In this document: positions 4,249-64,000 of the stretch, piece after piece | Layout: each line of letters opens with the position of its first letter | Numbering within the stretch: position 1 is the stretch's first letter | From: Candidatus Nomurabacteria bacterium | GTDB taxonomy: Bacteria; Patescibacteriota; Minisyncoccia; Phycocordibacterales; UBA9973 | Assembly (NCBI GenBank): GCA_943359485.1 | Contig: CALRHR010000002.1 | Coordinates: 24,992 to 88,991 of the forward strand | Reading direction: 5' to 3' | DNA: 64,000 bases | Made by a program: the position numbers and the translations under genes | The notes under the pieces: model-generated | Databases searched by the model: none | What the model was told of the DNA's origin: nothing | Seen by the model: only the letters and a program-made list of their open reading frames with translations

Positions 4249-5538
4249 ATGAGTGAGGATAAACCAAAAAACTTGAGTCGCAAATGGTCACAGGTTATTT
4301 CTGTCGGCTGGTTTTTGGCTTTCAGGCAAATAAAAGGCTCAAACAAATCTACGACTTTTCTCATAATATTTATAATGATGTTGACCTTCTTGAACCTCGT
4401 TGTAGTTTCAGGTATTTTGGTAGGTCTAATAGAAGGTGGAAGAGTTGCAAATAAAAAACAATATTCAGGGGATGTAATTGTGACTACACTAGCTGGTGAA
4501 AATAATATAAAACGCACCAATGAAATAGAAAGTACACTGATTAAGATGAGCGGGGTTCAAAATATCAGCACTAGATACATATCTTCAGGGCAAGTTGAAG
4601 CAAACTATAAAACTCGTCGTGATTTTAGCACTCCAAAAGACATAGCAGGTACACAAGTAACGGGAATAAATATACAAGACGAAGAAGCTTTGTCTGGTAT
4701 TTCGAATTATGTAGATGAGGGTAGTTTTTTAAATGAAACCGAGAGTGGATATATTGTTTTGGGTAAAAATCTACTTCGTAGATATTCTGAAGACTTTGGA
4801 GATGTTTTCGCTTCCATCGAAGGTACTTATCCAGGCGATGAAGTAAAAGTGACAGTGGGTAAAAATACAAAAACTTTTATTGTGAAAGGAATTGTAAGCT
4901 CAAAAGTGAACCAAGTCTCTCTTCGAGCTTTTGTAACCAAGCAAGATTTCTTACGTTTAGTAGACAAGGCAGATTTAAATGCAAATGAAATCGCAATACG
5001 AATAAACCCAAATTCAAAAATTACCCCCGATGGCACAAAGGCCAATTTAATAAATGCTGGTTTTGCGAATGATGGAAAAATCCAGACAGCTGTCGAAGCC
5101 ACCCCTGAATTTCTCAATCAAATTCGAATAGCTTTTGCTCTTCTTGGAAATGTGATAGGTCTGATTGGTATCGTGGTTGCCTCTATCACTATTTTTATTG
5201 TTATTTTTATAAATGCCGTTACTCGCAGAAAGTATATTGGTATTATGAAAGGTATAGGCATATCTGAAAAAGCTATAGAAGTCTCATATATTATTCAATC
5301 CATATTTTATGCCCTAATAGGTGGGCTAATCGGTCTTTTAATTACTTTTGTTCTATTAGTACCTTTCTTTGATGCATATCCATTAAACTTTCCGTTTTCA
5401 GATGGAATATTAGTGGCACCTATTGGCGAAACTATGTTTAAATTCGGATTACTTTTATTAGTGACACTTTTAGCAGGATATATTCCTGCGAGAAATATAG
5501 TTAAGAAAAATACGTTAGATAGTATTTTAGGAAGATAA
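4249..5538 (+). CDS. ABC transporter permease, FtsX/MacB family
   Basis: TM1, a large periplasmic domain, then three C-terminal TM helices. Forms a probable operon with the adaptor upstream and the ATPase downstream. Confidence 0.7.
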   Translation: MSEDKPKNLSRKWSQVISVGWFLAFRQIKGSNKSTTFLIIFIMMLTFLNLVVVSGILVGLIEGGRVANKKQYSGDVIVTTLAGENNIKRTNEIESTLIKMSGVQNISTRYISSGQVEANYKTRRDFSTPKDIAGTQVTGINIQDEEALSGISNYVDEGSFLNETESGYIVLGKNLLRRYSEDFGDVFASIEGTYPGDEVKVTVGKNTKTFIVKGIVSSKVNQVSLRAFVTKQDFLRLVDKADLNANEIAIRINPNSKITPDGTKANLINAGFANDGKIQTAVEATPEFLNQIRIAFALLGNVIGLIGIVVASITIFIVIFINAVTRRKYIGIMKGIGISEKAIEVSYIIQSIFYALIGGLIGLLITFVLLVPFFDAYPLNFPFSDGILVAPIGETMFKFGLLLLVTLLAGYIPARNIVKKNTLDSILGR

Positions 5539-5548
5539 AAATAATTTC

Positions 5549-6226
5549 ATGATAAAAGTAAAAAATTTAACAAAAACATATAAGACTAAAGATATTGAAA
5601 CTCCGGTTTTGCGAGGGATAGATTTAAATGTAGCTCCCGGAGAATTCTTAGGAATTATGGGAAAGTCTGGGGCCGGGAAGTCTACTTTGATGTATCAGAT
5701 AGGATTACTTGATCATCCTACTTCCGGAGAAATTATTTTAAATAGTAAAAATACTGAACAGATGTCTACTGAGGAGCGAACTCAGATGAGATTATCTGAG
5801 CTAGGATATGTCTTCCAAGACTATGCTCTTATTCCAGAATTGACTGCTGTGGAAAATGTAATGATACCACTTTTAATGAAGGGATTTTCTAAATCAGAAT
5901 CATGTGATATCTCAATAAAAATGCTTGAGCGTATTGGACTTTCACATCGAGTAGACAATAAACCTGGTCAATTATCCGGTGGAGAACAACAGAGAGTATC
6001 AATAGCCAGAGCCATGGCCCACAACCCAAAAATTTTATTTGCCGATGAGCCCACTGCCAACCTAGACACCATTTCTGGATACTCAATAATTCAATTATTC
6101 AAAGAATTACACGATAAAGGTCAGACAATCGTAATGGTTACTCATGAAGAAGAATATGCAAAATATTGCGATCGAATAATTTATCTCGAAGATGGAAAGA
6201 TCGTGCGAGAGGTGAAACAAAAATAG
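5549..6226 (+). CDS. ABC transporter ATP-binding protein (MacB/LolD-like)
   Basis: Walker A GIMGKSGAGKSTLM, signature LSGGEQQRVSIARAM, Walker B ILFADEPT, and an H-loop VTHE. Confidence 0.88.
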   Translation: MIKVKNLTKTYKTKDIETPVLRGIDLNVAPGEFLGIMGKSGAGKSTLMYQIGLLDHPTSGEIILNSKNTEQMSTEERTQMRLSELGYVFQDYALIPELTAVENVMIPLLMKGFSKSESCDISIKMLERIGLSHRVDNKPGQLSGGEQQRVSIARAMAHNPKILFADEPTANLDTISGYSIIQLFKELHDKGQTIVMVTHEEEYAKYCDRIIYLEDGKIVREVKQK

Positions 6227-6278
6227 ATAGAAATTGCCTTAGACTTTTAATCTTCTGCTTGGTATACTTTTTTATATT

Positions 6279-7709
6279 ATGGCAAATAAATATTATCCTA
6301 CAATTGGACTTGAAATTCATGCAGAGCTCAAAACAAATACCAAGATGTTTTGTAGTTGCAAGAATGATCCAGATGAGAAGATGCCAAATGTGAATATTTG
6401 TCCAGTTTGTATGGCTCACCCAGGGGCGTTACCGGTGGCAAATAAAAAGGCCATAGAAAATGTTATTAAAGTTGGTCTGGCGCTTGGTGGCAATATTGCT
6501 GATTTTTCAGAATTTGATCGTAAGAATTATTTTTATCCAGACATACCAAAGGGTTATCAGATTTCACAATATAAATTCCCGATAGTTTCTGGTGGGAGTT
6601 TGGCGGGTATGAGAATCACTCGTGTGCATTTAGAAGAAGATACAGCAAACAATAAACACGACAGAGGGGACTTCTCACTTATTGATTTCAATCGTGCGGG
6701 TGTTCCACTCATGGAGCTTGTCACCGAACCACATACATTTGAAAATGCGGAAGAGACAGCAAAAGTAGCAACAAACTTTGCGAAAGAATTGCAGTTGATT
6801 CTGCAGTATTTAGGAGTTTCAGAAGCAAATTTAGAAAAAGGTGAAATGCGTGTGGAGCCAAATATTTCAGTATCTACAGATCCAAAAATTTTAAACACCA
6901 AGGTAGAAATAAAAAATTTAAATTCTTTCAAGAGCGTCGAACGGGCGGTGAAGTATGAGATTGAGAGGATGATAAAACTTTTCGAAGAAGGAAAAGAAAA
7001 AGAAATAGTGCAAGAAACACGAGGCTGGGATGAGTCCAAGCAAAAAACTTTTTCGCAAAGGAAAAAAGAGGGGAGCGCTGATTACAGATATTTCCCAGAC
7101 CCTGACTTACCAAAAATAAAGTTGCACGAAGCTTTCGATTTAGAGCAGTTAAAGAAAGACTTGCTGGAATTACCCGAAGCAAAACGCGAGAGATATAAAA
7201 AAGATTTTGGAATCAAAGAAGAAGATATTGAAGTTTACATAAACGATCCCGTGCTCGCGACTTGGTTTGAAGAAGTGGCGAATATTTTAAAAGATAAAGA
7301 GAAAATTAAAATAGCCTCAAATTACATAACGACAGATTACATTGGACTTAAGAAAAGTTCTGCCAAAGTCGGACTTCCGCAAAGTTCGAATTTCGCAGAA
7401 TTGATAAATATGCTTACTGAGGGCAAGATATCTTCTCGAGTCGCTAAGGATATTTTAGGTGAAATTGTTTTAAATGATGGATCGCCACTTGAAATAATTA
7501 CAACGAAAGGTTTATTGCAAGAAAATGATGAAGAAGCTACAAAGGTGGTTATAGAAAAAATAATTTTAGAGAATCCAGAAATTGTAGCCATTTATAAGTC
7601 TGGGAAGGAAAGTGCTATAATGTCTTTGGTTGGTAAAGTTATTAAAGAAAGTAAAGGCAAGGCGAATCCTAAAATAGTTGTAAAAATTTTAAGAGAGGAA
7701 TTAAAATAA
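6279..7709 (+). CDS. gatB: Asp-tRNA(Asn)/Glu-tRNA(Gln) amidotransferase subunit B
   Basis: MANKYYPTIGLEIHAELKTNTKMFCSC...CPVCMAHPGALP and a C-terminal GatB/YqeY domain. No gatA or gatC is adjacent. Confidence 0.92.
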   Translation: MANKYYPTIGLEIHAELKTNTKMFCSCKNDPDEKMPNVNICPVCMAHPGALPVANKKAIENVIKVGLALGGNIADFSEFDRKNYFYPDIPKGYQISQYKFPIVSGGSLAGMRITRVHLEEDTANNKHDRGDFSLIDFNRAGVPLMELVTEPHTFENAEETAKVATNFAKELQLILQYLGVSEANLEKGEMRVEPNISVSTDPKILNTKVEIKNLNSFKSVERAVKYEIERMIKLFEEGKEKEIVQETRGWDESKQKTFSQRKKEGSADYRYFPDPDLPKIKLHEAFDLEQLKKDLLELPEAKRERYKKDFGIKEEDIEVYINDPVLATWFEEVANILKDKEKIKIASNYITTDYIGLKKSSAKVGLPQSSNFAELINMLTEGKISSRVAKDILGEIVLNDGSPLEIITTKGLLQENDEEATKVVIEKIILENPEIVAIYKSGKESAIMSLVGKVIKESKGKANPKIVVKILREELK

Positions 7710-16592: not shown

Positions 16593-19500
16593 CTAGTCTC
16601 CTTTTTTGTTTAGATTTCGATATAAAATAGAATAATCCAAAGAATTCACAGTGCCGTCTTTATTTATGTCGTATAGTGGAATATTTTTATTCCAATTTTG
16701 AAAGATGATAGAAGAATCTATGGTGTCGATAACACTATCATTGTTGAAATCTCCGGCGGTGAGTTGTCCATAATCAATTTCCGAAGTTTGATTCAAATCA
16801 ACACCACGAATTATTTTTGGTAAAAATCCTGGCACAACTATGCGGATATCTACCACAGTTGAGGAATTAGAAATACTAGGAGTAGCTTGTCCAGAAGAAT
16901 CAGGGGAAATATTTATTTCTGAAAGTTTAGTGCTTTTACTATAAACCTCAATCTTGCCCGGAATGTTTTTTAAATTAGTTCCTTCTAAACTTAACTTTAT
17001 AGATTTTATTTTGGTAGTAGCTTGTGGTGCGCTCTGGGATGGGGTAGGTGTCGGAGTTGGTACTGGTACTGGGGTCGGTGTGGGTATTGGAGCTGGTACA
17101 GGTGTGGGTGTAGGTGCAGGAGTTGGAATAGGGGTGGGAGCTGGCACAGGTGCTGGGGCAGGAGCTGGTGCAGGTACAGGGGTGGGTGTCGGAGCTGGCA
17201 CAGGTGCTGGGGTGACTACTGGATTTCCAATATAATATTTAAAATCTACTGGCACATATGATGTGCGCGAAATTCCAGTAATGCTGTATCCGCTGCCATT
17301 AAAATACACACCTTTGTTTACAGTGGCTTCAGATTTAGTATTTAAGATTGTGTTGCCGTTGTTGTGCCACTTGTCACTGTCTGTAGTTTCTTGGCTTACT
17401 ATGTAATAAGTAGTATTAGCCAAAAGTCCGAGAGGAGAAGCGAGGTCAGTATATGCAAATTGGCCAGCAGTTTTTCCTGCAGTAGATAATTTTACGGAAC
17501 CTAAGTCCGCATTGTCAGAAGCACGAACTATTTTTATTGTATGCGCCTGATTATTTCCAGATACAATATATCGGCCAAGTGCAGTGATGGTGATAGCTTG
17601 GTTGCCTGTCGTCATGGAAAATCCTACCCAGCCCGTATAGTCATTGCGCAAGATGTCTAAAGAAGAGATTGAAGTTACAAAAGCACCTGGCGAAGTCACG
17701 AGGGGGGAAGGTGATGGTGAAGGTGATGGCTGTGGGTTAGCTACTGTAGTCGGTACTGGTGCCGAAACTGGGGCCGGCGTAGGTGCCACAGCACCGCCAG
17801 TAACATTTATATTACTGCTTACGGCGTTGCCATTTGTAGAAAAAGTATTACCGGAACCAGTTATACCAGAAAATGTGGAACCGCCTGTACCATAAATACC
17901 AAAGGACGCATTTCCTGAAAAATTGTTTCCAGAAATTATTACATTTTGTACTTGAGTAGGAGTATCCCAAAAAGTGATTCCGTCACGACTGTGACCGCTA
18001 AAAATATTATTACTAATATTTACAGTGCTTAGGTTGGCATTTCCACCAAAGACTATTCCTGCATACTGAGGTAGGGGATTGGTGCTCGACATAGTGTTAC
18101 CACTTATAGTTACATTTTGCCCGCCATTGTTGAAGTAAATACCACCAGAGAGATTTGAACTTTTATTATTTCGGATTATATTATTGGAAATTGTAGAGTT
18201 GCGCAAAATTTCAGAAGAATTTGTATCTTCGTTTACTACATAGATACCACTCTGGGTGTTTTCCTCAGCAGTATTTCCTGTGATGGTCACATTGCGTGCA
18301 CCATAATTCAGTGTGAGCTGTAAGCCATGGCAGTCGTTACGGTTGGTAGTATTTCCTGAGTACAATGCAGTACTTGATGGATTGTAATAACCATCCATCA
18401 AGAGTTTTATTCCCGCGCACCCAGTGTTGTTGCTGACATTATTTAGAACTTTAACAGTGCCAGAAGCTTGAACGACTATACCAGAGTGTCCTGTTTTATA
18501 AACATGGTTGTTTTCCACTGTGATATTTTTTTCTATCGCGGATTGCCACCAGTTGCCGAGCCACATACCTCGCATTACGCGTAAATTTGGCACTGGCACA
18601 TTCGAAGTATCTCTGTCGATGGTGATATTTTGGTAAGTATTGCCGGTGTTACCAGATGCTTGAAATACAGCTGAGGCTTGACTATCAGGACCACACTGCA
18701 TATTCATGTTGCGAATATTTAAATTTTCGAAAGTTGTATTTGTGTTGTTTGTGGCCCCAAATGCTGCGGTGCAAAAATTGTTGTTGCCATCAACATTTAG
18801 ATTTTTTATTACACAGTTTGTGCAGCTGCGGACATCAAATAAAATTCCACCTGTTATGCCGTTGCTGGCCGTGCCGACACCTGTAATTCTAAAACCACCT
18901 CCGTTTATGCCTTGGACAGTGATGCCAGTTTTCCCGTTTAGGCTAACAGTGCTTCCTATATCTGCCACACAATCAAAATTTATAGTTCCATTGTCAGCTA
19001 CTGCTCCAAAGGCTTGAGTAATAGCCGCCGCTGCATCTCCAGCACCACAAGCTCCATAGTCACTAATGCTTACGTTTGTGGCTACACCTTTTACAATTCC
19101 GTTGATCGAGGAGTTCATTTTCAGTTTTGTCTTCGGACCTATAAGACCATCCGCCACCAAGCCGTGGTTCTTTTGCCATGTTTTAATAACGTTGATAGTC
19201 TTGGGTCCAAGTACGCCGTCGATCACTAGGCCGAGGTTTAAAACTTGGTTCAGAAATTTCTGCAATTCTTTCACTGCTTCACCTCTACTTCCGTTCTTTA
19301 AAGTTACAGCGCCAAAGTTGTACGCAGTTTTGGTTTCAGCTTTTGGTAATGCATAAGTAGTTGCATTATTTTTTGTAGTGCTCACAGGTGAGTATGTGGA
19401 AACTTTCTTACTTCCACCGCCTCCACCACCCCCTCCGCCACCACTTGAACTACTACTATTTGCATTTTGAACGATTCCAATAATATTGTATTCAGCAGAA

Positions 19501-20015
19501 CTCACAGAAGATAAAACGTCTGCACCATTTGAGGCTATGTTCGTATCTGACGTGCTTCCAGACATAAAATCAAAATACAAATTTGTTTTTCCAATATTTT
19601 TGGGTAAAAAAGTTATGGTGGCCAAGACGCCGTTTCCATTGTAAACACCACTACCAGGGGCTACTTGTGCAAAACTAATTCTTCCGTTGGTAGAGTCTGC
19701 AGAATTTACCACAGTGTTTGACATCAAGCTGCCTGGAGAGATTTGTATTCCGGGTGCACCTCCATCCGCATCTACTACCTCTAAAAAAGATGGATTGTAA
19801 TTTAAATACAAGATGTCTACGCCCTCAACACTCGCGTCTTGTGTGTCGAGAAAGATGCTAACCGTAAAGTTGGAGTTCTGAGTTACATTTTGGGAAGAAG
19901 GAGAAAGGTACAGCGTGGCTGCCTCAGTGTTCGTAGCAAAACATAAAAGCATAAGGCCAAACAAGAATACGAGTAATTTGTCTTTTGAGTTTGATTCTTT
20001 TTTCATTTTATACAC
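16593..20015 (-). CDS. Giant secreted multidomain surface protein: signal peptide, cohesin-like domain, Gly10 linker, PG-binding domain, parallel beta-helix (pectate-lyase/NosD-like), PT-linkers, C-terminal dockerin-like repeats
   Basis: 1140 aa with an N-terminal signal peptide ([19 protein letters not shown]). A cohesin-like segment ([14 protein letters not shown]...[19 protein letters not shown]) is followed by a poly-Gly linker and then PG_binding_1 ([15 protein letters not shown]...DGVLGPKT...ADGLIGPKT). Beta-helix repeats have NxN/GxxxN ladders ([24 protein letters not shown]). Long (P[AT]P)n linkers precede a C-terminal dockerin pattern [12 protein letters not shown]...[12 protein letters not shown]. 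Confidence 0.7.
17017..17222 (-). repeat. Low-complexity coding repeat encoding the (PxP[AT])n Pro-Thr linker of the giant protein
   Basis: The repeated ggtgc(t/a)gg(g/t)g(c/t)agg units translate on the minus strand to [20 protein letters not shown]... Confidence 0.7.
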
Positions 20016-35997: not shown

Positions 35998-38448
35998 GTG
36001 AACAAAAAACAAAATTTTGCAAAAATGCCTAAAAAAAGTCAAATTAGCGTGGCAATATTGTGTGGCGGACCTTCACTCGAACGGGGAATCTCGTTAAATT
36101 CTGCACGCAGTGTTCTTGACCATCTAGGTAGTCAGGGGGTCGAGATTGTACCCATCTATTTTAATGAAAAAAGAACTCCCTATAAAATTTCAAATGCGCA
36201 ACTTTATTCAAACACCCCGTCTGATTTTGATTTTAAGTTAAAAAAAACTGGCAGAGAACTTTCGCAGTCCGCCCTCGTTAAAATTTTAAAAAGTGTAACA
36301 ATTGTTTTCCCTTGCATGCACGGCACATTTGGCGAGGATGGAGAGATTCAAAGTTTTTTAGAAAAACACGGTATTCCTTTTATTGGTTCAGGATCGCAAG
36401 CATGCAAGACGGCTTTTGATAAATTTAGAGCGAACGAATACATTCGCTCGCTTGGGTTTTATGCTCCGCAATCCATTGTACTCAAGATCACCGACACAGA
36501 AAAAGAGATTAGAAAAAAAGTTTATAGTTTTTGGAAAAACGAAAAGATAAAATGCGCTATAGTCAAGCCAGCTTCCGGGGGTTCAAGTATTGGTGTATTT
36601 TCTACAGGAAACATAGATGATAGTATAGACCGAATAAAAAGCCTATTCAGTAAACGCAGAGATACACGCGTGGTAGTGGAGCGTTTTGCGGAAGGAAAAG
36701 AGTTTACGGTAATTATTTTACAAAACAGACTTAATATGCCGGTGGCTATTTTACCCACTGAACAGGAAATGGATTATAGCAAACATCAATTCTTTGATTT
36801 CCGTAAAAAATACTTACCGACCCGTCAGGTTACCTATCATTGTCCACCTCGATTTCCAAACGAAATAATTGAAAAAATACAGATACAGGCCGAACAGCTT
36901 TTTTCTGTTTTTGGCATGACGGACTTTGCTCGTTTTGACGGATTTCTGATGCCCGATGGGAATATTTGGTTTTCAGATTTTAATCCAATTTCTGGCATGG
37001 AGCAGAACAGTTTTCTTTTTCAACAAGCATCTCGTATCGGCATGACCCATCAAGATATTTTGCGTTTTATAGTAAACAACGCCTGTTTACGCCGGGGTAT
37101 TCCGGTGGTATTAGAAAATTTATTTTTACACGAAAATTTAGACAAGAAAAGAAAACCACTGGCTGTGCTTTTCGGTGGGGAAACAGCGGAAAAGCAAGTC
37201 TCGCTCATGAGTGGCACAAACACCTGGCTTAAATTGCGTGGATCTCAAGTATATAAACCATTTCCATATCTTTTAGCAAAAAAAGATGAAATTTGGGAAC
37301 TTCCGTATTCTTACATTCTCAATCACACAGTTGAAGAAATAATAGAAAATGCAGAAAAAGCCCCAAGGGATATAAAAAGATTATTATTTTTACTTGAAAA
37401 GGTGAAAATGAGATTATTCTTAAAAGAATCTGATGCCACAGAAGACTTTTTTATGCCTAGAAAATACACCTTAAATAAAATCCTAGCAAAGCACCCCTTT
37501 ATATTCTTAGCCTTGCATGGTGGAATTGGTGAAGACGGGACAATACAGCGAATTTTGGAAAAAAATAAGATAAAATACAACGGCTCCGACAGCTCAACTT
37601 CCAAACTCTGTATGGACAAATGGTTAACTAATGAAATAATATCGCAGGCGAATTTAAGTGGAGTAAAAACTGCTCCGCATGTACTTCTGAAGGTAGAAGA
37701 TTTTTCTAAACTTTCTATGAGTAAAACACAAGAGGATTACTGGCAAATGCTTTTAGGAACACTCGGAGGAAAAACAGTTATTGCTAAACCTCGAGGTGAT
37801 GGATGTTCGGCTGGAGTGGTGCGACTTTTTAATAAAAAAGATTTAGCTACATATATTTGGTTTATAAAAAATAAATATTCTGTCGCTAAACCCGGTACTT
37901 TTACTAATCAAAATAATTTAATTCAAATGCCAGAAGGTGAGGTCATGGATATTATTTTTGAATCATTTATTGAAACAGATAAATTAAAAATCCATGGAGA
38001 TAAGATTGTGCACATTAGGAAGAGCGGTTTTCTGGAAATGACTGTGGGTGTAGTAGAAGAAAAAAATTCTGGCAATGGCAAAGGTCGCATAAAAGCATTA
38101 TCTCCCTCCATTACTGTGGCTGAAGATACAATACTGTCTGTTGAAGAAAAGTTTCAAGGAGGTACTGGTGTAAATATTACTCCGCCACCAGCTCACATTA
38201 TCTCGCGAAAAAACCTTAATAAAGTTAAAAAGTCTATTGAACTTGTGGCGGAAAAACTTAGAATTCGTGGTTACGCCAGAATTGATATTTTTACCCAAGT
38301 CAAAACTGGGAATATTATTGTAATTGAAATAAATACTCTACCGGCGCTTACTCCGTCAACCGTTATTTATCATCAGGCGTTAGCAGAAAAAGAACCAATT
38401 TTCCCTAAACAATTTATGGAATTAGTTGTAGAAAACAAAGAATCATAA
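35998..38448 (+). CDS. ddl: Tandem-duplicated D-alanine--D-alanine ligase (two Ddl-like ATP-grasp modules fused)
   Basis: Module 1: ISVAILCGGPSLERGISLNSARSV ... KPASGGSSIGVF. Module 2 (from about residue 390): LAVLFGGETAEKQVSLMSGTN ... KPRGDGCSAGVVRLF. Alanine racemase follows immediately. Confidence 0.65.
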   Translation: MNKKQNFAKMPKKSQISVAILCGGPSLERGISLNSARSVLDHLGSQGVEIVPIYFNEKRTPYKISNAQLYSNTPSDFDFKLKKTGRELSQSALVKILKSVTIVFPCMHGTFGEDGEIQSFLEKHGIPFIGSGSQACKTAFDKFRANEYIRSLGFYAPQSIVLKITDTEKEIRKKVYSFWKNEKIKCAIVKPASGGSSIGVFSTGNIDDSIDRIKSLFSKRRDTRVVVERFAEGKEFTVIILQNRLNMPVAILPTEQEMDYSKHQFFDFRKKYLPTRQVTYHCPPRFPNEIIEKIQIQAEQLFSVFGMTDFARFDGFLMPDGNIWFSDFNPISGMEQNSFLFQQASRIGMTHQDILRFIVNNACLRRGIPVVLENLFLHENLDKKRKPLAVLFGGETAEKQVSLMSGTNTWLKLRGSQVYKPFPYLLAKKDEIWELPYSYILNHTVEEIIENAEKAPRDIKRLLFLLEKVKMRLFLKESDATEDFFMPRKYTLNKILAKHPFIFLALHGGIGEDGTIQRILEKNKIKYNGSDSSTSKLCMDKWLTNEIISQANLSGVKTAPHVLLKVEDFSKLSMSKTQEDYWQMLLGTLGGKTVIAKPRGDGCSAGVVRLFNKKDLATYIWFIKNKYSVAKPGTFTNQNNLIQMPEGEVMDIIFESFIETDKLKIHGDKIVHIRKSGFLEMTVGVVEEKNSGNGKGRIKALSPSITVAEDTILSVEEKFQGGTGVNITPPPAHIISRKNLNKVKKSIELVAEKLRIRGYARIDIFTQVKTGNIIVIEINTLPALTPSTVIYHQALAEKEPIFPKQFMELVVENKES

Positions 38449-56103: not shown

Positions 56104-57600
56104 ATGTATAGTGAAACCAAGATGAAGAAAAATACCAACTCTAAAAACCTAAAAAACTTAGGGCAAGGATTAACATTTGACGATGTGCTTTTGGTGCCAA
56201 ATCATAGTGAAGTTTTACCGCGCAATGTCATTACAAAAACCCGCCTGACGAAAAATATAGCTCTCCATATTCCTCTGATGTCCGCGGCAATGGACACAGT
56301 GACTGAGGGAGCTATGGCCATAGCCATGGCAGAGCAAGGTGGTATTGGCATCATTCATAAAAATTTATCGATCGAAGATCAGGCTAAGGAAGTCGAACGA
56401 GTAAAGCGTTATGAATCTGGCCGAATATCAAATCCAATTACTCTCACGGTGGGGCAGACGGTGGGAGATGTTTTGAAAATAAAAGCCAAATATCATTTTG
56501 GAGGATTCCCTGTTTTAGATAAGAGTGGTAAGTTGGTGGGCATTATTACGAATCGCGATCTTCGATTTCAAAAAAATAACTCTACTTTGGTAGAGAAAAT
56601 TATGACAATCAAGCTTGTTACCGGCGGACCACACACAACCATTGAAGAAGCCAATGACTTATTTCAAAAATACGGTATTGAAAAACTTCCACTCGTAGAT
56701 AAGATGGGTAAATTAGTCGGGCTGATTACCTATCGTGATACGGAAAAAAGCAAAGAACACCCAAACGCTACCAAGGACAAAGAAGGAAGGCTTTGCGTAG
56801 GGGCGGCAGTAGGCGCGGGCAGTGATGTTCTCTCTCAAGTTGAAGCCCTTGTTAAAGCTGGGATAGACATTATATGTGTAGACACAGCTCATGGACATTC
56901 CAAGGGTGTGATTGAAACAGTAAAAAAAATTCGTAAAGCTTATCCAAAACTCGACATTATTGCTGGAAATATCGCTACCGGCGAAGCCGCGCTCGCGCTT
57001 ATAACTGCTGGAGCGAATGCGGTAAAAGTCGGCATTGGTCCTGGTTCGATTTGTACCACGCGGGTTGTCTCAGGCGTCGGAGTACCACAACTCTCTGCTG
57101 TTTCTTCTGTGTATGAAGTTTGTAAGAAATTAAATATTCCAGTTATTGCTGACGGCGGGATAAAACATAGCGGAGATGTGGTCAAGGCTCTCGCTTTTGG
57201 CGCCGATGTAGTAATGGGTGGCAGTATGTTTGCTGGGACAGATGAATCTCCGGGCGACATAATTACACTAAACGACCAAAAATTTAAAAAATATCGAGGC
57301 ATGGGTAGTCTCGGCGCGATGCAGAGAGGTTCCAAGGATCGTTATTTTCAAGAAGATCAGTATGATCTGACCAAGCTCGTACCCGAAGGTGTTTCTGGGC
57401 ATGTGTCTTATAAAGGCCCAGTATCTGGTATAATTCATCAATACATTGGTGGACTTCGCGCAGGCATGGGCTATCTGGGAGCCGAAAACATTCAAACTAT
57501 GCGCAACGCTTCTTTTTATACTATTACTTCGGCTGGCCTATCAGAAAGTCATATACATGATGTTTTTATGGTAAAGTCTGCGCCAAATTACAAGAAATAG
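56104..57600 (+). CDS. guaB: IMP dehydrogenase
   Basis: [14 protein letters not shown], a CBS pair, the catalytic [11 protein letters not shown] loop, and GGIKHSGD. Confidence 0.92.
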
Positions 57601-57634
57601 GTTTTAGTTGCTAGCTTCTAGGTTCTAGAAAAAA

Positions 57635-59065
57635 ATGAATAAAAATAAAAATTTAAAAGTTACCCCTTTAATTGGTCTACAATGGGGAGATGAAGGCAAG
57701 GGTAAGGGCGTAGCGCGCATCGCGTCGAGTTTATCGAAAAATGATTTAGTCACTAGATTCCAGGGTGGGAATAACGCAGGGCATACTATTTTTCACAAAG
57801 GCAAATCATATGTGTTTCAATTAATTCCTTCGGGTGTGTTCGGCAAGGTCAAGATTCACCTCGGCGCTGGAATGGTTATAAATCCCTACGCCTTTTTAAA
57901 AGAAACGGAAAGAATTCCGGAAGAAATTTCATTCTTATCACGGCTTTCTGTCTCACCTCATGCTGTACTGGTAATGCCGACACATCTATTTCTAGATTCT
58001 ATTTCTGAAAAGTCTAAAGGCAAGAAAAAAATTGGCTCGACCGGAAAAGGAATCTCGCCTTCATATACTGACCTAGTTATGCGTCGGGCTCTGCGCATTG
58101 GGGATATTTCACAACGAGACTTCAAAAATAGATATAAAATACTCCGCGATGAACATAAGAAAATTCTAAAAAATATTTTTCAGTATAAAGTTTCCGACAA
58201 GGAATTAAGAGAGAGTGAAAGAAATTTTTGGCAGGGAATAAAATTCATCCGCAGTCTTATAATTAAAAACTCAGCAGAACTAGTGGCAGAAACACTTGCA
58301 AAAAATGGGAAAGTTATCGCCGAAGGTGCGCAGGGGACTTTGCATGATATCAGATTCGGCAATTATCCATTTGTGACTTCTTCACATACCTTTGCCGGAG
58401 GGGTAGCTACTGGCTTGGGAATCCCGCCAGCTCTTATTGGCGGTTCAATTGGAATTTTAAAAGCATACTCGACGCGAGTTGGAGAAGGACCTTTCCCCAC
58501 AGAACTTGGGGGTGAAAAATCAGCGGTCTGGTGTAGAGATAAAAAAGTTATTGATGAAAAAGAGAAATTTCCACATCCCCAAATAGGCAGTATGCTAAAT
58601 AGTAAAGATGAATTCATACAGGGCGTGGCCCTCCGTAAGGCGGGATCAGAGATTGGCGCGGTCACAGGAAGACTGCGTCGCACTGGTTGGCTGGATATTC
58701 CTTTAGTTAAATTTGCTATGAAGATAAATAATACCACCGAACTTGTTCTGACCAAGCTGGATGTTTTTAACAACTTTAAAAAAATAAAAGTTTGTACGCA
58801 TTACATCATAGACGGTAAAGCAACTACAAAAATTCCATTTGATCTTTCGCGAGAAAAAATAAAGTGTATCTATAAGTCGTTTCCTATTTGGAAAGGGAAG
58901 TTGTCTGACTATCATGGTAAACCCACCCGACTGAACAGTCGTTCGGGCGAGCTTCCCAAAGAAGCCATAAATTACATAAAATATTTAGAAAAAACTCTCG
59001 GCGCCAAAATTATCTATGTCTGCACTGGTCCCGAAGAGCATGAGTGTATCGAACGGTATTGGTAG
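57635..59065 (+). CDS. purA: Adenylosuccinate synthetase
   Basis: GLQWGDEGKGK (P-loop), GGNNAGHT, TGKGISPSY, and GTTGRRCGWLD-like VTGRLRRTGWLD. Confidence 0.92.
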   Translation: MNKNKNLKVTPLIGLQWGDEGKGKGVARIASSLSKNDLVTRFQGGNNAGHTIFHKGKSYVFQLIPSGVFGKVKIHLGAGMVINPYAFLKETERIPEEISFLSRLSVSPHAVLVMPTHLFLDSISEKSKGKKKIGSTGKGISPSYTDLVMRRALRIGDISQRDFKNRYKILRDEHKKILKNIFQYKVSDKELRESERNFWQGIKFIRSLIIKNSAELVAETLAKNGKVIAEGAQGTLHDIRFGNYPFVTSSHTFAGGVATGLGIPPALIGGSIGILKAYSTRVGEGPFPTELGGEKSAVWCRDKKVIDEKEKFPHPQIGSMLNSKDEFIQGVALRKAGSEIGAVTGRLRRTGWLDIPLVKFAMKINNTTELVLTKLDVFNNFKKIKVCTHYIIDGKATTKIPFDLSREKIKCIYKSFPIWKGKLSDYHGKPTRLNSRSGELPKEAINYIKYLEKTLGAKIIYVCTGPEEHECIERYW

Positions 59066-59128
59066 AGATTAAAAGTTGAACCTAGCTCTGTGATGGTAAA
59101 ATACTATGAATTAGTATAATATACCTAT

Positions 59129-62053
59129 ATGATTTCTCGTATTTATGTGGTGCCTAAATCTGGAGCAACTAGGGCGGATTCTTATTTGCTTGACTCAAAA
59201 TTATCCAAAAAAGAGATCAAGAAACTGGCTGAGGCACTCGCCAATCCAATACTAGAAAACTACTATATAGATGAATCCCCAACAGTGGGGAATTTTTCTT
59301 TTGCGATCGAAATAGGTTTTAAGCCAGGGGTAACGGACAATGTTGGGAACACCGTGAAAGAAATTGCCAAAGATTTACTGCGCACAAAAAATAATTCTGA
59401 ATTTCAGGTTTACACTTCAAAAATTTTCTTCGTCTCCGGTTCAAAAAAAGATGCGGAGGAATTTGCCAGTTCGCTATATAACCCACTGATTGAGCGCGCC
59501 ACAGTTGTGTCAGTAAAAAATGGAACAATAAATTTCCCCACCCAAATGCCAAAAGTAATTCTCAAAAAAAGAAAGTCTGTGATAAATGTTTCCCTGAATG
59601 TTCCCAATGAAGAACTGATAAGAATAGGCAAAGAGGGGGTAATGGATCCAGATGGTACAAGAAGGGGTCCTTTGGCACTTGATTTATCGAGTATGCAGGT
59701 GATTCGTGATTATTTTAAAAAATTAAAGAGGAGCCCAACAGATATCGAGCTCGAATCTTTAGCACAAACATGGTCTGAACACTGCAAACACACGATTTTT
59801 GCAAATCCAATTGACGATATCAAAGATGGTTTGTATAAAACTTACATCAAAGGCGCGACAAATTTAATCCGCAAGCAAAAAAGCCAGAGAGGTCAGCAGG
59901 ATTTTTGTGTTTCTGTTTTCAGTGATAATTCCGGTGGAATAATTTTTGAAAAAGATTATTTAATCACGCATAAAGTAGAAACTCATAATAGTCCTTCCGC
60001 GCTCGACCCATTTGGTGGGGCCATCACCGGCATCGTAGGAGTGAATCGGGACACTATCGGCTTTGGATTAGGTGCTAAGCCCGTAGCAAATACTTATGGA
60101 TTTTGTTTTGGGTATCCAGAAGATAAAAGAAAATTATTCAAAAATAAAGACAAGAATGGCAACCCAACAAACCTCATGCTACCTCCGAGTAGAATCATGG
60201 ATGGAGTAATTAAGGGCATCAATGCTGGCGGAAACTGTTCCGGAATTCCGACTCTCAATGGATTTGTAAAATATGACGACAGGTATCGAGGTAAACCTCT
60301 GGTCTTCGCTGGAACTGTGGGGTTGATTCCACGAAAGTTGGGGACAAAATTTTTACACGAAAAAAAAGCCCGAGTTGGGGACTATATAGTGGTAGTTGGC
60401 GGAAAAGTTGGCCTCGACGGAGTGCATGGCGCTACATTTTCATCAGTGGCACTTGATTCAAATTCTCCAGCAACCGCAGTGCAGATAGGTGATCCGATTA
60501 CACAAAAAAAATTAAGTGACGCAATAGTAAAAGAAGCACGCGACATGAATTTATACCACAGCATCACCGACAACGGTGCAGGAGGAATTTCCTGTTCAGT
60601 AGCCGAAATGGCCAAGGAGTGTGGAGGAGCTGAAGTAAATCTTGAAAAAGTTCCGCTTAAATATCTTGGTCTGCGTCCTTGGGAAATTTGGATTTCAGAG
60701 TCCCAAGAGCGCATGACGCTTGCTGTACCTCCAAAAAAGTGGAAAAAATTTAAAGCGTTACTAGAGAGCCGTGGAGTTGAAGCGATGGCAATCGGGGAAT
60801 TTACGAATTCCAGAAAATGCGTAGTAAATTACAACGGCAAAAAAATAATGGATATGGATATGGAATTTCTACATAATGGATTACCAAAACAGCACTTACA
60901 AACAGAAAAAATTATACCCCCTCCTTTCTCCTCCCCCTACAGTAGGGGGAGGTTGGGTAGGGGTAATGATTACACCAAAACTTTGGAAACTCTACTTGGA
61001 AATATTAATTTAAGTGGATTTTCATTTATTTCACAACAATACGATCATGAAGTGCAAGGCTCTTCTGTGCTAAAACCTCTTTCCGGAAAGGGGCGTATAA
61101 ATACGGATGCGCAAATTTTTAAACCAGTTTTAAATTCAAACAAAGGAGTTGTCTTATCATCTGCGCTGTATCCTTCATATGGTGATATCAGCACTTACGA
61201 TATGGCTGCTTGCGCGCTCGACACTGCTGTCCGAAATACGATAGCTTGTGGCGGTAAATTGTCGCACTTGGCAATTTTAGATAATTTTTGCTGGTGCTCT
61301 TCTCACGACCCAAAACGGCTAGCGCAACTCGTGGATTCTGTAAAAGCTTGTTATGACTACGCGGTCGGCTACGGTACACCTTTTATCTCTGGTAAGGATA
61401 GCATGTTTAATGATTTTAAAGGTTATGACGAGAAAGGAAATCCTATCGCGATCTCTATTCCACCGACACTTCTGATATCTTCCATTGGAGTAATGCCCGA
61501 CATTTACAAAACTGTTTCGCCAGAATTTAAAAATAGTGGAGATATAATTTATTTACTCGGAGAGACAAAAGACGAACTTGGTGGTAGTAAATATTTAAAA
61601 ATGCTTACCCGCCGTAGCCTTGGCGAAGGCCGGGTCCCACAAGTTGATATTCAGAAGAATTTGAAAACTTACAAAGCTCTAGAGCAAGTTATAGAGCAGG
61701 AATTGGTAGCTTCGGCACTTTCTGTGACTTCGGGAGGTCTTGCAATAGCGCTCGCCAAAGCTTGCATAGGTGGAATGCTCGGCGCTAAAATTAGTGCGAC
61801 AAGCATACTGGAAGAATCAACCTCCTCTGAGGTAAAACTTTTTTCCGAAAGCCAGGGAAGAATTTTAGTATCTGTCTCGCCCAAAAATGTAAAAGAATTT
61901 GAAAAAATGATGAAAGGAGTTCCTTGTGCGAAGCTAGGAAAAGTTTCCAAAGGTAAAGAAGTAGTAGTTACTGATGGGAAGAATAAAATAATCAACACAA
62001 CCGTTAAAAATTTATACAAAATTTACCATAGATTTTCTAATTCTCAAAAATGA
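59129..62053 (+). CDS. purL: Phosphoribosylformylglycinamidine synthase (PurL, with N-terminal PurS-like domain)
   Basis: AIR-synthase-related duplicated domains (WSEHCKH, HNSPSALDPFGGAITG, DNGAGG). 974 aa. It contains a GC-rich in-frame insert (PPPFSSPYSRGRLGRGN). Confidence 0.88.
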   Translation: MISRIYVVPKSGATRADSYLLDSKLSKKEIKKLAEALANPILENYYIDESPTVGNFSFAIEIGFKPGVTDNVGNTVKEIAKDLLRTKNNSEFQVYTSKIFFVSGSKKDAEEFASSLYNPLIERATVVSVKNGTINFPTQMPKVILKKRKSVINVSLNVPNEELIRIGKEGVMDPDGTRRGPLALDLSSMQVIRDYFKKLKRSPTDIELESLAQTWSEHCKHTIFANPIDDIKDGLYKTYIKGATNLIRKQKSQRGQQDFCVSVFSDNSGGIIFEKDYLITHKVETHNSPSALDPFGGAITGIVGVNRDTIGFGLGAKPVANTYGFCFGYPEDKRKLFKNKDKNGNPTNLMLPPSRIMDGVIKGINAGGNCSGIPTLNGFVKYDDRYRGKPLVFAGTVGLIPRKLGTKFLHEKKARVGDYIVVVGGKVGLDGVHGATFSSVALDSNSPATAVQIGDPITQKKLSDAIVKEARDMNLYHSITDNGAGGISCSVAEMAKECGGAEVNLEKVPLKYLGLRPWEIWISESQERMTLAVPPKKWKKFKALLESRGVEAMAIGEFTNSRKCVVNYNGKKIMDMDMEFLHNGLPKQHLQTEKIIPPPFSSPYSRGRLGRGNDYTKTLETLLGNINLSGFSFISQQYDHEVQGSSVLKPLSGKGRINTDAQIFKPVLNSNKGVVLSSALYPSYGDISTYDMAACALDTAVRNTIACGGKLSHLAILDNFCWCSSHDPKRLAQLVDSVKACYDYAVGYGTPFISGKDSMFNDFKGYDEKGNPIAISIPPTLLISSIGVMPDIYKTVSPEFKNSGDIIYLLGETKDELGGSKYLKMLTRRSLGEGRVPQVDIQKNLKTYKALEQVIEQELVASALSVTSGGLAIALAKACIGGMLGAKISATSILEESTSSEVKLFSESQGRILVSVSPKNVKEFEKMMKGVPCAKLGKVSKGKEVVVTDGKNKIINTTVKNLYKIYHRFSNSQK
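60916..60966 (+). repeat. GC-rich palindromic mini-element, family C/D, inserted in frame in purL
   Basis: accccctcctttctcctccccctacagtagggggaggttgggtaggggta, with stem ctccccc/gggggag. Confidence 0.65.
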
Positions 62054-63756
62054 AAACTGAAACTAGGAATTGCCAAAACTGTAAAAAAGACTTTGTAATA
62101 GAGACGGACGATTTTTCTTTTTACGAAAAAATAAAAGTGCCACCTCCAACTTTTTGCCCTGAATGCCGTTCCGTAAGACGCATGAGCAGCACAAATGAAC
62201 GTGTTTTATATAAAAGAAAATGTGATCTTACAGGCGAGCCGATTTTTAGTATGTACACTGAAGATGCCCCGTTTCCTGTATATAAAACCAGCAAGTGGTA
62301 TTCTGACGAATGGGATCCATACCAATACGGGCAAGAATACAACTTTTCTAAATCATTTTTTGAGCAATTTTTAGAGTTGAGAAATAAAGTGCCAAAGATG
62401 GCGCTTGTTCGGCAAGGATTCTCTGCTAATAGTGAATATACCCATCGTGTTACTGATATGAAGAATTCATACATGGTTTTTCGTATGACTCGCAGTACTG
62501 ATTCTATGTACAGCTATATCGGGAAAGACCTGATGGATTCAGCTGACTGTTTTACGATTTCGGCAGTTGAATTGTGTTACGAATGTATTGACTGCAATAA
62601 ATGCTATAAGACAAGATTTGCGCAAGAATGCGTAGAATGCCGCGAATCAATGTTTTTGTATGCCTGCAAAAATTGCTCTAACTGTGTTGGTTGTGTAAAT
62701 TTAATAAACAAAGAATATCATATTTTTAATGAGCCATATACCAGAGAAGTATATCTTGAAAAATTAAAGGAATTGAGACTAAATACATATTCGGGGATTG
62801 AAGAGATGAAGGGAAAATTTGAAGAATTTAGAAAGAAATTTCCACAGCGTGCAATAATGTCTCTAAAATCTAACAATGTTTCGGGCAACTGGTTCACTAA
62901 CTGCGAGAATGTTAAAAATTCTTTTTGGTGTTTGGACTTGAAAGATTGTAGATATATTTATTTCTCTTTTTCAGCACAAGATTGTATGGATTATTTTCAA
63001 TGGGGTAACGCTTCCGAACTTGTATACGAGTCCGAAAACTGCGGTATAAATTGTTCGAGAATTTATTTTTGTACTCAATGCTGGACTGGCGCACATGATT
63101 TATTCTATTGCGATTCTTGCCCAAGCTCTAGTAACTGTTTCGGTTGTATAGGATTAAAAAAGGGAGAATATGCGATTTTGAATAAAAGATATACAAAAGA
63201 GGAATACGAAAAAATGCTACCGCAAGTAATTGAACATATGAAAACTATGCCTTATATAGATAAAAGAGGGATAGAATATAAATTTGGAGAACATTTTCCT
63301 TACGAGCTTTCACCCTTTGCTTATAACGAAACGGCAGCTATTGATTTTTATCCATTATCCAAAGAAGAAGCGATTTCCCGAGGGTATAAATGGAAAGAAA
63401 AAGAAAAGAAAAATTATACGACTACCATGAAAGGTTCTGCCTTACCTGAAACAATAAACGAAGTGAGCGACTCTATCTTAAACGAAGTGATTGAGTGTGC
63501 TGATAAAGATCAGCCATATTCTGTCGGTGCTTATCGTATTACACAAAACGAGCTTTCTTTTTATCGCAGAATGGATTTACCGCTACCGAGAGTCTGTTTT
63601 GATGTTCGTCACACACGTCGTCTATACAAGCGCCCACCACTTCGCACAATCAAACGCTTGTGCTCAAAATGCAATGTGGAAGTAGAAACAGTTTACGATG
63701 AAAAATACTCCCCGATAGTTTATTGTGAAAAATGTTATCAGCAAGAAATATATTAA
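62050..63756 (+). CDS. Cys-rich protein of unknown function (multiple CxxC / zinc-ribbon-like motifs) wedged between purL and purQ
   Basis: 568 aa. It has an N-terminal CQNCKK...CPECRS, central clusters CYECIDCNKCYK, CVECRES..CKNCSNCVGC and CTQC...CDSCPSSSNCFGC, and a C-terminal CSKCN...CEKC. Its ATGA start overlaps the purL stop, and purQ starts 3 nt after its stop. Confidence 0.6.
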   Translation: MKTETRNCQNCKKDFVIETDDFSFYEKIKVPPPTFCPECRSVRRMSSTNERVLYKRKCDLTGEPIFSMYTEDAPFPVYKTSKWYSDEWDPYQYGQEYNFSKSFFEQFLELRNKVPKMALVRQGFSANSEYTHRVTDMKNSYMVFRMTRSTDSMYSYIGKDLMDSADCFTISAVELCYECIDCNKCYKTRFAQECVECRESMFLYACKNCSNCVGCVNLINKEYHIFNEPYTREVYLEKLKELRLNTYSGIEEMKGKFEEFRKKFPQRAIMSLKSNNVSGNWFTNCENVKNSFWCLDLKDCRYIYFSFSAQDCMDYFQWGNASELVYESENCGINCSRIYFCTQCWTGAHDLFYCDSCPSSSNCFGCIGLKKGEYAILNKRYTKEEYEKMLPQVIEHMKTMPYIDKRGIEYKFGEHFPYELSPFAYNETAAIDFYPLSKEEAISRGYKWKEKEKKNYTTTMKGSALPETINEVSDSILNEVIECADKDQPYSVGAYRITQNELSFYRRMDLPLPRVCFDVRHTRRLYKRPPLRTIKRLCSKCNVEVETVYDEKYSPIVYCEKCYQQEIY

Positions 63757-63758
63757 TT

Positions 63759-64000
63759 ATGAGAAAAAAACCAATACATTCGCATAGCTCAGCATCTTCG
63801 GCTAAAAAGCCTCGAATTATAATCATGTCCGGATACGGACTCAATTGCGAAGAGGAGACCAAATTTGCTTTTGAAACTGCGGGCGGGGCCGCGGACATTG
63901 TGCATATTAACGACTTAATCAAGAAACCGAAAATACTCTCAAGCTACCAGATATTGGTTTTTCCTGGTGGATTTTCTTATGGCGATGACACAGGCAGTGG
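63759..64000 (+). CDS. purQ: Phosphoribosylformylglycinamidine synthase glutamine amidotransferase subunit PurQ (5' part; continues beyond the window)
   Basis: MRKKPIHS...PRIIIMSGYGLNCEEETKFAFETAGG...ILVFPGGFSYGDD is the class I GATase N-terminus of PurQ. Confidence 0.8.
   Translation, partial: MRKKPIHSHSSASSAKKPRIIIMSGYGLNCEEETKFAFETAGGAADIVHINDLIKKPKILSSYQILVFPGGFSYGDDTGS

Follow-up and report, generated by a model that had tools for sequence, protein, structure and literature searches.

In a 64,000-nucleotide stretch of a Candidatus Nomurabacteria genome (the window), an open reading frame (ORF) of 568 amino acids (aa) lies at positions 62050-63756 on the forward strand, between the purine genes purL and purQ. 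An earlier note on this DNA, made from the letters alone, had placed the ORF there with an ATGA overlap with purL, and both observations are borne out: the ATG of the ORF (62050-62052) shares the four letters at 62050-62053 with the TGA stop of a 974-aa purL. The note also described gapless packing, with purQ starting 3 nt after the stop; the junction is indeed tight, and the gap between the TAA of the ORF (63754-63756) and the ATG of purQ at 63759 measures 2 nt. Pfam searches identify the upstream ORF as PurL (AIRS_C, E = 7.7e-49; AIRS, 2.5e-18; FGAR-AT_linker, 5.5e-16) and the downstream ORF as PurQ, of which the window holds the 5' part only; the full purQ encodes 267 aa on the source contig (L088; L-numbers denote fetched loci). 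There the purine operon reads guaB-purA-purL-X-purQ-(57 aa)-purF-purN-purD-purE-(281 aa)-purM-purC-purB, where X is the 568-aa ORF. No Pfam or NCBIfam model of PurS (PF02700) or of another component of formylglycinamidine ribonucleotide (FGAM) synthase matches the 568-aa protein at E <= 10. The ORF is not PurS, as the note had held; that identity was rejected for want of a match, and a PurS-like region is found in PurL instead (aa 59-126). The proposed fusion of PurS to the N-terminus of PurL is upheld as to this likeness and not as to its score, which at 20.2 bits misses the cut-off of 22.2.

The 568-aa protein belongs to a very large family. It matches no Pfam, NCBIfam or PADLOC model at E <= 10 and no PDB sequence, and a role in an anti-phage defence system was rejected on the PADLOC result (0 families). 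Of 8,000 candidates in a word-indexed search, at least 6,859 clusters at 90% identity are homologous. An exhaustive profile search yielded 4,516 clusters at 50% identity; 1,917 of these reach E <= 1e-30, and the lengths are nearly all 540-600 aa. The best 120 homologs, 524-584 aa long, share 63-80% identity with the protein along its full length and are called "hypothetical protein" wherever they are named; their named sources are all Nomurabacteria, Paceibacterota or Patescibacteria. Scanning one genome per GTDB species gave at least 583 coding matches, with all named hosts again Patescibacteria, and among the matches listed the named hosts are Nomura-, Staskawicz-, Lipton-, Jorgensen-, Giovannoni- and Sungiibacteria (Parcubacteria-type). 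Phage genomes gave no family match and IMG/VR one fragment. PHROG 15341, itself a family of unknown function, is matched at 6e-8 over aa 159-219, which is not informative. As far as these sequences reach, the family is restricted to Patescibacteria, mainly Parcubacteria/Paceibacteria.

Within the family, clustering of 212 near-full-length copies gives 24 groups at 50% identity and 71 at 55%. The group of the window copy (group A, 32 members) stays separate at 50% identity. Orthologs, which we define as copies with at least 60% identity to the window copy, are 61-79% identical to it in species-representative genomes, with dN (nonsynonymous substitutions per site) of 0.15-0.25; synonymous sites are saturated, so that no dN/dS ratio is computable. 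The window gene is under strong purifying selection, and the ortholog groups, taken singly, are conserved to about the degree of GrpE or DnaJ. Its relative synonymous codon usage (RSCU) is native. With more than 6,800 homologs, full-length orthologs, low dN and native codon usage, we conclude that the ORF is a real gene. Our search of the literature on cysteine-rich, treble-clef, beta-solenoid and paralogous proteins of Patescibacteria found no description of the family, and it is not described among the 106 poorly annotated families enriched in the Candidate Phyla Radiation (CPR) reported by Meheust et al. 2019. No described functional kind fits the family, which makes it novel in this sense, and its sequences are already public as hypothetical proteins.

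The earlier note had drawn attention to paired cysteines, and its account of CxxC motifs at both termini and of central clusters holds apart from one spacer. The protein contains 34 cysteines (6.0% of residues), including terminal pairs (C8/C11, C36/C39, C538/C541, C559/C562), two central CxxCxxCxxC runs (C176/179/182/185 and C206/209/212/215) and a further cluster, C341/344 ... C354/357-x5-C363/366, in which residues 357 and 363 are separated by five residues and not four. The last two pairs, C538-x2-C541-x17-C559-x2-C562, have the exact CxxC-x17-CxxC spacing of the TIGR04272 type, and the N-terminal finger is spaced C8-x2-C11-x24-C36-x2-C39. Across the family the cysteines of the N-terminal finger are 88-98% conserved and those of the C-terminal finger 93-97%; in orthologs the figure is 100%. 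At the family level, the end modules can be assigned from sequence to the zf_Tbcl and zf_Tbcl_2 (CxxC-x17-CxxC) domain types: zf_Tbcl (PF13451) matches 17 and zf_Tbcl_2 (PF23477) matches 23 of 75 aligned homologs at E <= 0.01, with best values of 2.2e-7 and 2e-6. The two end modules are homologous to each other (N-terminal 100 residues versus the C-terminal part, BLASTP E = 3e-7). Small Methanosarcina mazei proteins with the CxxC-x17-CxxC domain have been purified and bind zinc (PMC12704099), and the note's suggestion of a metal-binding kind of protein agrees with terminal pairs of the treble-clef and CxxC-x17-CxxC finger types. The window protein has no signal-like N-terminus and no hydrophobic or transmembrane segment (maximum Kyte-Doolittle value over 19 residues, 1.06). 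It is probably a soluble, cytoplasmic protein that would bind zinc in the cytoplasm.

A different picture emerges for the central cysteines. In a first AlphaFold2 (AF2) run with 33 orthologs both solenoids were poorly modeled, with a predicted local distance difference test score (pLDDT) of 38-65 and no significant fold matches, whereas with 144 orthologs and paralogs the pLDDT rose to 95.8 and the predicted template modeling score to 0.92; the model therefore depends strongly on alignment depth. In this model, the DSSP strand pattern EEEE--E--E-- repeats every 12 residues over about 120-225 and about 275-376, a pattern that describes two very narrow predicted beta-solenoids, each followed by helices. 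The body is internally duplicated (aa 101-250 versus 251-400; BLASTP E = 8e-17, 29% identity), and the duplicated parts stand in mirror-like order in the protein. Family cysteine columns lie at exact multiples of 12 (140/152/164/176/212, 185/197/209 and 182/194/206), and cysteine frequency has a strict period of 3. Taken with the modeled strands, the two periods imply that each CxxCxxCxxC run would be the four inward-facing residues of a single turn, that is, that the central runs are predicted to occupy inward-pointing solenoid positions. The solenoids are followed by a linker domain with the family motif G-E-F-F-P...S-P-F-A-Y-N-E-T...F-P-L-T-K-E-E-A...G..W, in which G413, F416, P417, S421, Y425, N426, A430, P435, G445 and W448 are near-invariant.

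These data bear directly on whether the central runs could instead hold iron-sulfur clusters in an electron-transferring protein. The spacing of C176-185 and C206-215 is ferredoxin-like and their cysteines are 82-100% conserved within the ortholog group. Against this, no Fer4 or other iron-sulfur family matches at E <= 10, the cysteines follow the 3- and 12-residue period of the solenoid interior, and the same columns are only 16-94% cysteine family-wide, mostly alternating with serine. Given this exchange with serine, the central clusters are not a conserved redox or iron-sulfur site; a ferredoxin-type protein was rejected as a candidate, and we regard an iron-sulfur function as highly improbable.

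Comparison with known folds yields analogies of limited range. The family's terminal modules share their cysteine spacing with zf_Tbcl, zf_Tbcl_2 and TIGR04272 domains, but those are short stand-alone domains of unknown function, whereas in this family a solenoid body of 400 aa lies between two finger pairs. Tandem cysteine-rich zinc fingers as end modules also recall LIM adaptors, a functional analogy for which we claim no homology: LIM proteins are eukaryotic, the match of the family profile to CRP and PINCH LIM domains over the C-terminal finger is not significant (E = 0.05-0.3), and a Pfam LIM match occurs in one of 75 family members. For the body, Foldseek against the PDB returned left-handed beta-helix enzymes only (E = 2e-4 to 4e-2), with TM-scores no higher than 0.11 (query) and 0.21 (target) and root-mean-square deviations of 9-20 A, so that the modeled likeness to proteins such as GlmU, LpxA, LpxD and gamma-carbonic anhydrase appears to be one of local solenoid geometry and not that of a global relative. 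Those proteins have 18 residues per turn against 12 here, where there are neither conserved catalytic residues nor a Hexapep Pfam match. A left-handed beta-helix acyltransferase or gamma-carbonic anhydrase was rejected on the period, the missing Hexapep match and the TM-scores. The Tenebrio molitor antifreeze protein (TmAFP; 1ezg) shares a 12-residue coil, a narrow core of small Cys/Ser/Thr residues and i/i+6 cysteine pairs, but it is secreted and disulfide-bonded, whereas the family has zinc fingers and no signal peptide. Searching the family profile against PDB sequences gave non-significant LIM matches on the last finger and this beetle antifreeze helix at E = 5 over aa 157-219, which is no evidence of homology. 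A BFVD search returned short zinc-ribbon or HNH-like fragments only (E >= 0.03).

We next asked how the family is distributed over purine operons and elsewhere, using two sets of loci. In the first, 80 metagenomic loci were fetched by PurL and their pur genes and family copies mapped. In the closest PurL clade (at least 70% identity), family copies lie between purL and purQ in 7 of 11 operons, the window included: one copy each in the window, L090, L092, L098, L101 and L135, and three in L130. In the remaining four (L089, L091, L093 and L094) purL directly adjoins purQ, and occupied and empty junctions are interspersed on the PurL tree. The sister PurL clade has no junction copies (0/5), purL adjoining purQ directly in all five, and among about 60 more distant operons family copies follow purL only in L127. 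L086, a species-representative locus from the family scan, carries two family copies and an MsbA-like ABC transporter gene in its purL-purQ junction; the genome that owns it keeps its group-A ortholog elsewhere, in L014. The second set comprises 79 species-representative loci of up to 15.8 kb chosen by similarity to the window's ortholog group, so linkage frequencies drawn from it are indicative and not free of bias. Only one of the 79 contains pur genes, and in none of the 23 ortholog loci is PurL or PurQ found within 7 kb.

The transporter gene of L086 (positions 5229-7004 of that locus) encodes a 591-aa exporter of the MsbA/HlyB type and stands between the two family copies.

The earlier note had reasoned from tight embedding to co-expression with FGAM synthase and to a metal- or redox-dependent accessory. 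Such an accessory would be a partner of PurL and PurQ kept at a fixed ratio by translational coupling. The first step is reasonable: five loci (the window, L090, L098, L101 and L130) share the ATGA overlap with the stop of purL, which fits translational coupling, and we infer that the gene is transcribed together with purL and coupled to it in translation, as a passenger. The second step does not follow. The 2-nt gap to purQ, the conserved overlap, the 7 of 11 occupied junctions and the independent occurrences in L086 and L127 are what an accessory subunit would predict; however, purL is followed directly by purQ in 4 of 11 close and in about 60 more distant operons, orthologs lie outside pur operons in 23 of 23 ortholog loci, and 78 of 79 family loci have no pur genes at all. 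Moreover, the junction occupants come from different paralog groups, with pairwise identities of 35-47% except for L092/L101 (68%) and L090 with copy 2 of L130 (64%), and a group-A copy is at the junction only in the window. This is a pattern that the note itself had named as a refutation: homologous loci in which purQ directly follows purL and the ORF lies elsewhere. An FGAM-synthase accessory is very unlikely on this evidence. The gene is a passenger of the pur operon and not a subunit of FGAM synthase.

How could a passenger come to occupy this site repeatedly? The simplest history is one old insertion in the clade followed by loss, change in copy number and replacement of the gene body. 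The 5' and 3' ends of family genes are conserved at the DNA level, and replacement could proceed by recombination between them. In a comparison for traces of recombination between a junction-resident paralog and group A, the first 30 codons of the window copy are 82% identical to those of L098 and 63-78% identical to those of its orthologs, but the whole family conserves this N-terminus. The same observations can be read as the work of a selfish gene, a possibility raised in the earlier note, in which copies insert between genes like free-standing homing genes with purL-purQ as a target site. Patchy junction occupancy by zero to three copies of different paralogs, very high copy number in tiny genomes and gene ends that could support cassette exchange all speak for such an element. 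Yet Pfam and NCBIfam scans find no nuclease, transposase or integrase domain, the 2-nt junction is too tight for terminal repeats, codon usage is native, phage genomes lack the family apart from the single IMG/VR fragment, and orthologs, being under strong purifying selection, retain synteny and 61-80% identity. A mobile element or homing endonuclease gene was accordingly rejected as a candidate, selfish insertion is quite unlikely, and what survives of the note's phrase is its weak sense of a passenger gene.

Outside purine operons, the family forms arrays and recurs beside two kinds of genes. At least two copies are present in 53 of the 79 loci and at least four in 16, and copies within arrays share 30-47% identity. 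The extreme is a stretch of about 23.5 kb on contig CAIMWV010000010.1 (about 13.9-37.5 kb), covered by the overlapping loci L039 and L055, where 13 distinct copies are found. Nine of the 23 ortholog loci lie among grpE/dnaK/dnaJ and genes for soluble VirD4/TraG-like ATPases. Two contexts recur for the orthologs: grpE-FAM-FAM-FAM(ortholog)-[PaaX_M-type regulator, opposite strand]-dnaK-[VirD4/TraG-like ATPase]-FAM, where FAM is a family copy, and [ATPase]-FAM-FAM(ortholog)-[rsmE, opposite strand]-[second ATPase]-dnaJ. Across the 79 loci a VirD4-like ATPase gene is present in 20, directly adjoining a family copy in 16, and grpE, dnaK or dnaJ in 18. The ATPases have TrwB/DUF87/TraG-D_C domains and no membrane segment, and the longer one carries a zf_Tbcl_2/TIGR04272 finger (4e-12, 5e-13) that can be aligned to the C-terminal finger of the family. 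We found no virB4 among the Pfam-annotated genes of eight loci, a virB4 search across the 79 loci not having been made. A survey counted 5,713 VirD4-like homologs across 2,918 genomes of the CPR, just 148 of these homologs being near virB4 (10.1101/2025.01.22.634366); by this count the anchor-less ATPases are known orphans.

Several neighbors of the arrays are of interest in their own right. The two anchor-less ATPases are seen, for example, at L002 10397-11845 and L004 13699-15807; the shorter is 73-93% identical to a reference copy across species-representative genomes (83-93% in group-A loci), and DnaK is 81-93% identical. In many genomes a divergent gene between the family array and dnaK (L004 9751-10278) encodes a 175-aa protein with a winged helix and a PaaX_M (Cas2-like) domain, which may regulate the heat-shock-like cluster in place of HrcA. 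Only two other genes interrupt the L039/L055 array, one CutA1-like and one for a VirD4-like ATPase, and CutA1-like genes are next to family copies in no fewer than six loci (L005, L006, L033, L052, L055 and L060).

Linkage to VirD4-like genes admits a reading in which the family members are exported effectors or surface proteins, diversified substrates of these ATPases sent to the host of the episymbiont, with the solenoid cysteines as disulfides outside the cell, as in the beetle antifreeze helix. ATPase genes adjoining family copies in 16 loci, the i/i+6 cysteine pairs shared with TmAFP (and the weak 1ezg match, E = 5) and the large diversified arrays are in its favor, the last because CPR VirB2-like pilins form comparable arrays of 2-11 strongly diverged paralogs in reduced genomes (10.1101/2025.01.22.634366). 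The parallel is one of tandem diverged paralogs: those pilins are small, secreted and linked to virB4, whereas the family members are about 570 aa, predicted cytoplasmic and linked to orphan VirD4-like ATPases and Hsp70 genes. In addition, the proteins have no signal peptide or transmembrane segment, four Cys4 zinc fingers speak for a reducing cytoplasm, the ATPases lack the N-terminal anchor by which true coupling proteins sit in the membrane, most VirD4 homologs of CPR bacteria lie away from virB4, and ortholog groups about as conserved as GrpE/DnaJ are unlike fast-evolving effectors. Export is unlikely. Each of the four rivals considered here, the FGAM-synthase accessory, the mobile gene, the exported effector and the iron-sulfur protein, fails one or more direct tests.

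We instead favor the following reading, to which, with its three parts taken jointly, we assign a probability of about 0.6: the ORF is a member of a Patescibacteria paralog family, its architecture would run from an N-terminal finger pair (zf_Tbcl, then CxxC-x17-CxxC) through two solenoids with helices and a linker domain to a C-terminal finger pair, and its place in the pur operon is that of a passenger. As to function, we tentatively suggest a zinc-stabilized, rigid cytoplasmic scaffold or adaptor, a proposal we hold at well below even odds. In such a scaffold, the terminal finger pairs would dock partners, protein or nucleic acid, in a LIM-like manner, and it would work with the soluble orphan VirD4/TraG-like ATPases and the GrpE-DnaK-DnaJ system. 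We propose these partners because orthologs and paralogs are interleaved with their genes and because one ATPase shares the finger. More doubtful still is a larger possibility, that the paralogs, the two anchor-less ATPases and GrpE-DnaK-DnaJ constitute an undescribed cytoplasmic machine of Parcubacteria-type CPR cells, perhaps a hetero-oligomeric, metal-stapled solenoid assembly, filament- or scaffold-like, built or remodeled by a hexameric translocase; copies in operons such as purL-purQ would then tie the supply of the machine to core metabolism.

Several of our own results weigh against this interpretation. The window protein itself has no zf_Tbcl or zf_Tbcl_2 match in the Pfam and NCBIfam scans, and by the family cysteine columns two of the four finger sites are decayed in its ortholog group: the second N-terminal finger keeps only C58, and the first C-terminal finger keeps C483 and C516, with the partner cysteines replaced by S491 and V519. 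About a third of the loci, and not all, show linkage to ATPase and Hsp70 genes. The scaffold or adaptor role is drawn from architecture and neighborhood, the family having no characterized homolog. Finally, occupancy of 7 of 11 junctions at the exact site, with a conserved ATGA, exceeds random expectation and leaves room for a benefit related to purine synthesis.

CPR/Patescibacteria genomes are among the smallest known, and the family fills a notable share of such tiny genomes, as the 13 copies of about 1.7 kb on one contig illustrate. A family so large, constrained and lineage-specific probably supports something central to these cells, and it has neither a name nor a domain model nor a structural relative. 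Its recurrent linkage also offers candidate partners to the orphan VirD4-like ATPases, thousands of which were counted in CPR by the survey above with no role assigned. For annotation, the lesson is that tight operon embedding, even with a start/stop overlap, is here no sign of a shared pathway; the interest of the gene lies in the family and not in the purine link.

Table 1. Features of the purL-purQ region, in window coordinates.
Feature	Position	Strand	Evidence
purL, 974 aa, with PurS-like N-terminal region and FGAR-AT linker	59129..62053	+	Pfam, sequence
ATGA start/stop overlap of purL and the 568-aa ORF, signature of translational coupling	62050..62053	+	Sequence; same in L090, L098, L101, L130
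568-aa ORF, ortholog group A of the Patescibacteria zinc-finger/double beta-solenoid paralog family (architecture predicted)	62050..63756	+	Homolog searches, model, clustering
Putative N-terminal treble-clef zinc finger (zf_Tbcl type), C8/C11/C36/C39, FY-helix, PxP..CPxCR motif	62071..62166	+	88-98% conserved; PF13451 in 17/75 members
Second N-terminal finger (CxxC-x17-CxxC in paralogs), degenerate, C58 left	62221..62304	+	Paralog alignment; sub-threshold zf_Tbcl_2 match at aa 51-83 of a paralog
Predicted beta-solenoid 1, aa ~118-228, about nine 12-residue coils, including C176-185 and C206-215	62401..62733	+	DSSP of model, Cys columns
Predicted helical cap/connector, aa 229-270, helices H232-242 and H247-261	62734..62859	+	Model
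Predicted beta-solenoid 2, aa ~271-380, internal duplicate of solenoid 1	62860..63189	+	BLASTP 8e-17, model strands
Helix and conserved linker domain, aa 381-480	63190..63489	+	Family alignment
C-terminal zf_Tbcl-type finger copy, half-degenerate	63496..63609	+	N- versus C-module BLASTP E 3e-7; family Cys columns 483, 491, 516, 519
Putative C-terminal CxxC-x17-CxxC finger (zf_Tbcl_2/TIGR04272)	63661..63735	+	Spacing; 93-97% conserved; PF23477 in 23/75; aligns to VirD4-like ATPase finger
purQ, 5' part, leaves window	63759..64000	+	GATase_5 2.4e-18

The analysis also turned up observations on the purine operon and on the rest of the window. A complete operon for de novo purine synthesis is present in this Patescibacteria genome (window 56104-64000, continuing in L088 4055-20875); most Patescibacteria are not known to have this pathway. 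Its PurL, with a PurS-like stretch, a FGAR-AT linker and a separate PurQ, is of a form between the "small" PurL with PurS and the fused "large" PurL, and has the same length (974 aa) in about 80 related loci. Two ORFs of the operon have no Pfam or NCBIfam match, one of 57 aa between purQ and purF (L088 12529-12702) and one of 281 aa between purE and purM (L088 16562-17407); the latter might stand in, as a non-orthologous replacement, for a pur step that is missing. Elsewhere in the window, an 816-aa ORF (35998-38448) has two sets of D-Ala-D-Ala ligase N- and C-domains and looks like a tandem-duplicated or fused Ddl. Lastly, a 1140-aa protein encoded on the reverse strand (16593-20015) has a peptidoglycan-binding domain, a region of right-handed beta-helix and, at its C-terminus, a dockerin domain, and is probably a surface or host-interaction protein.

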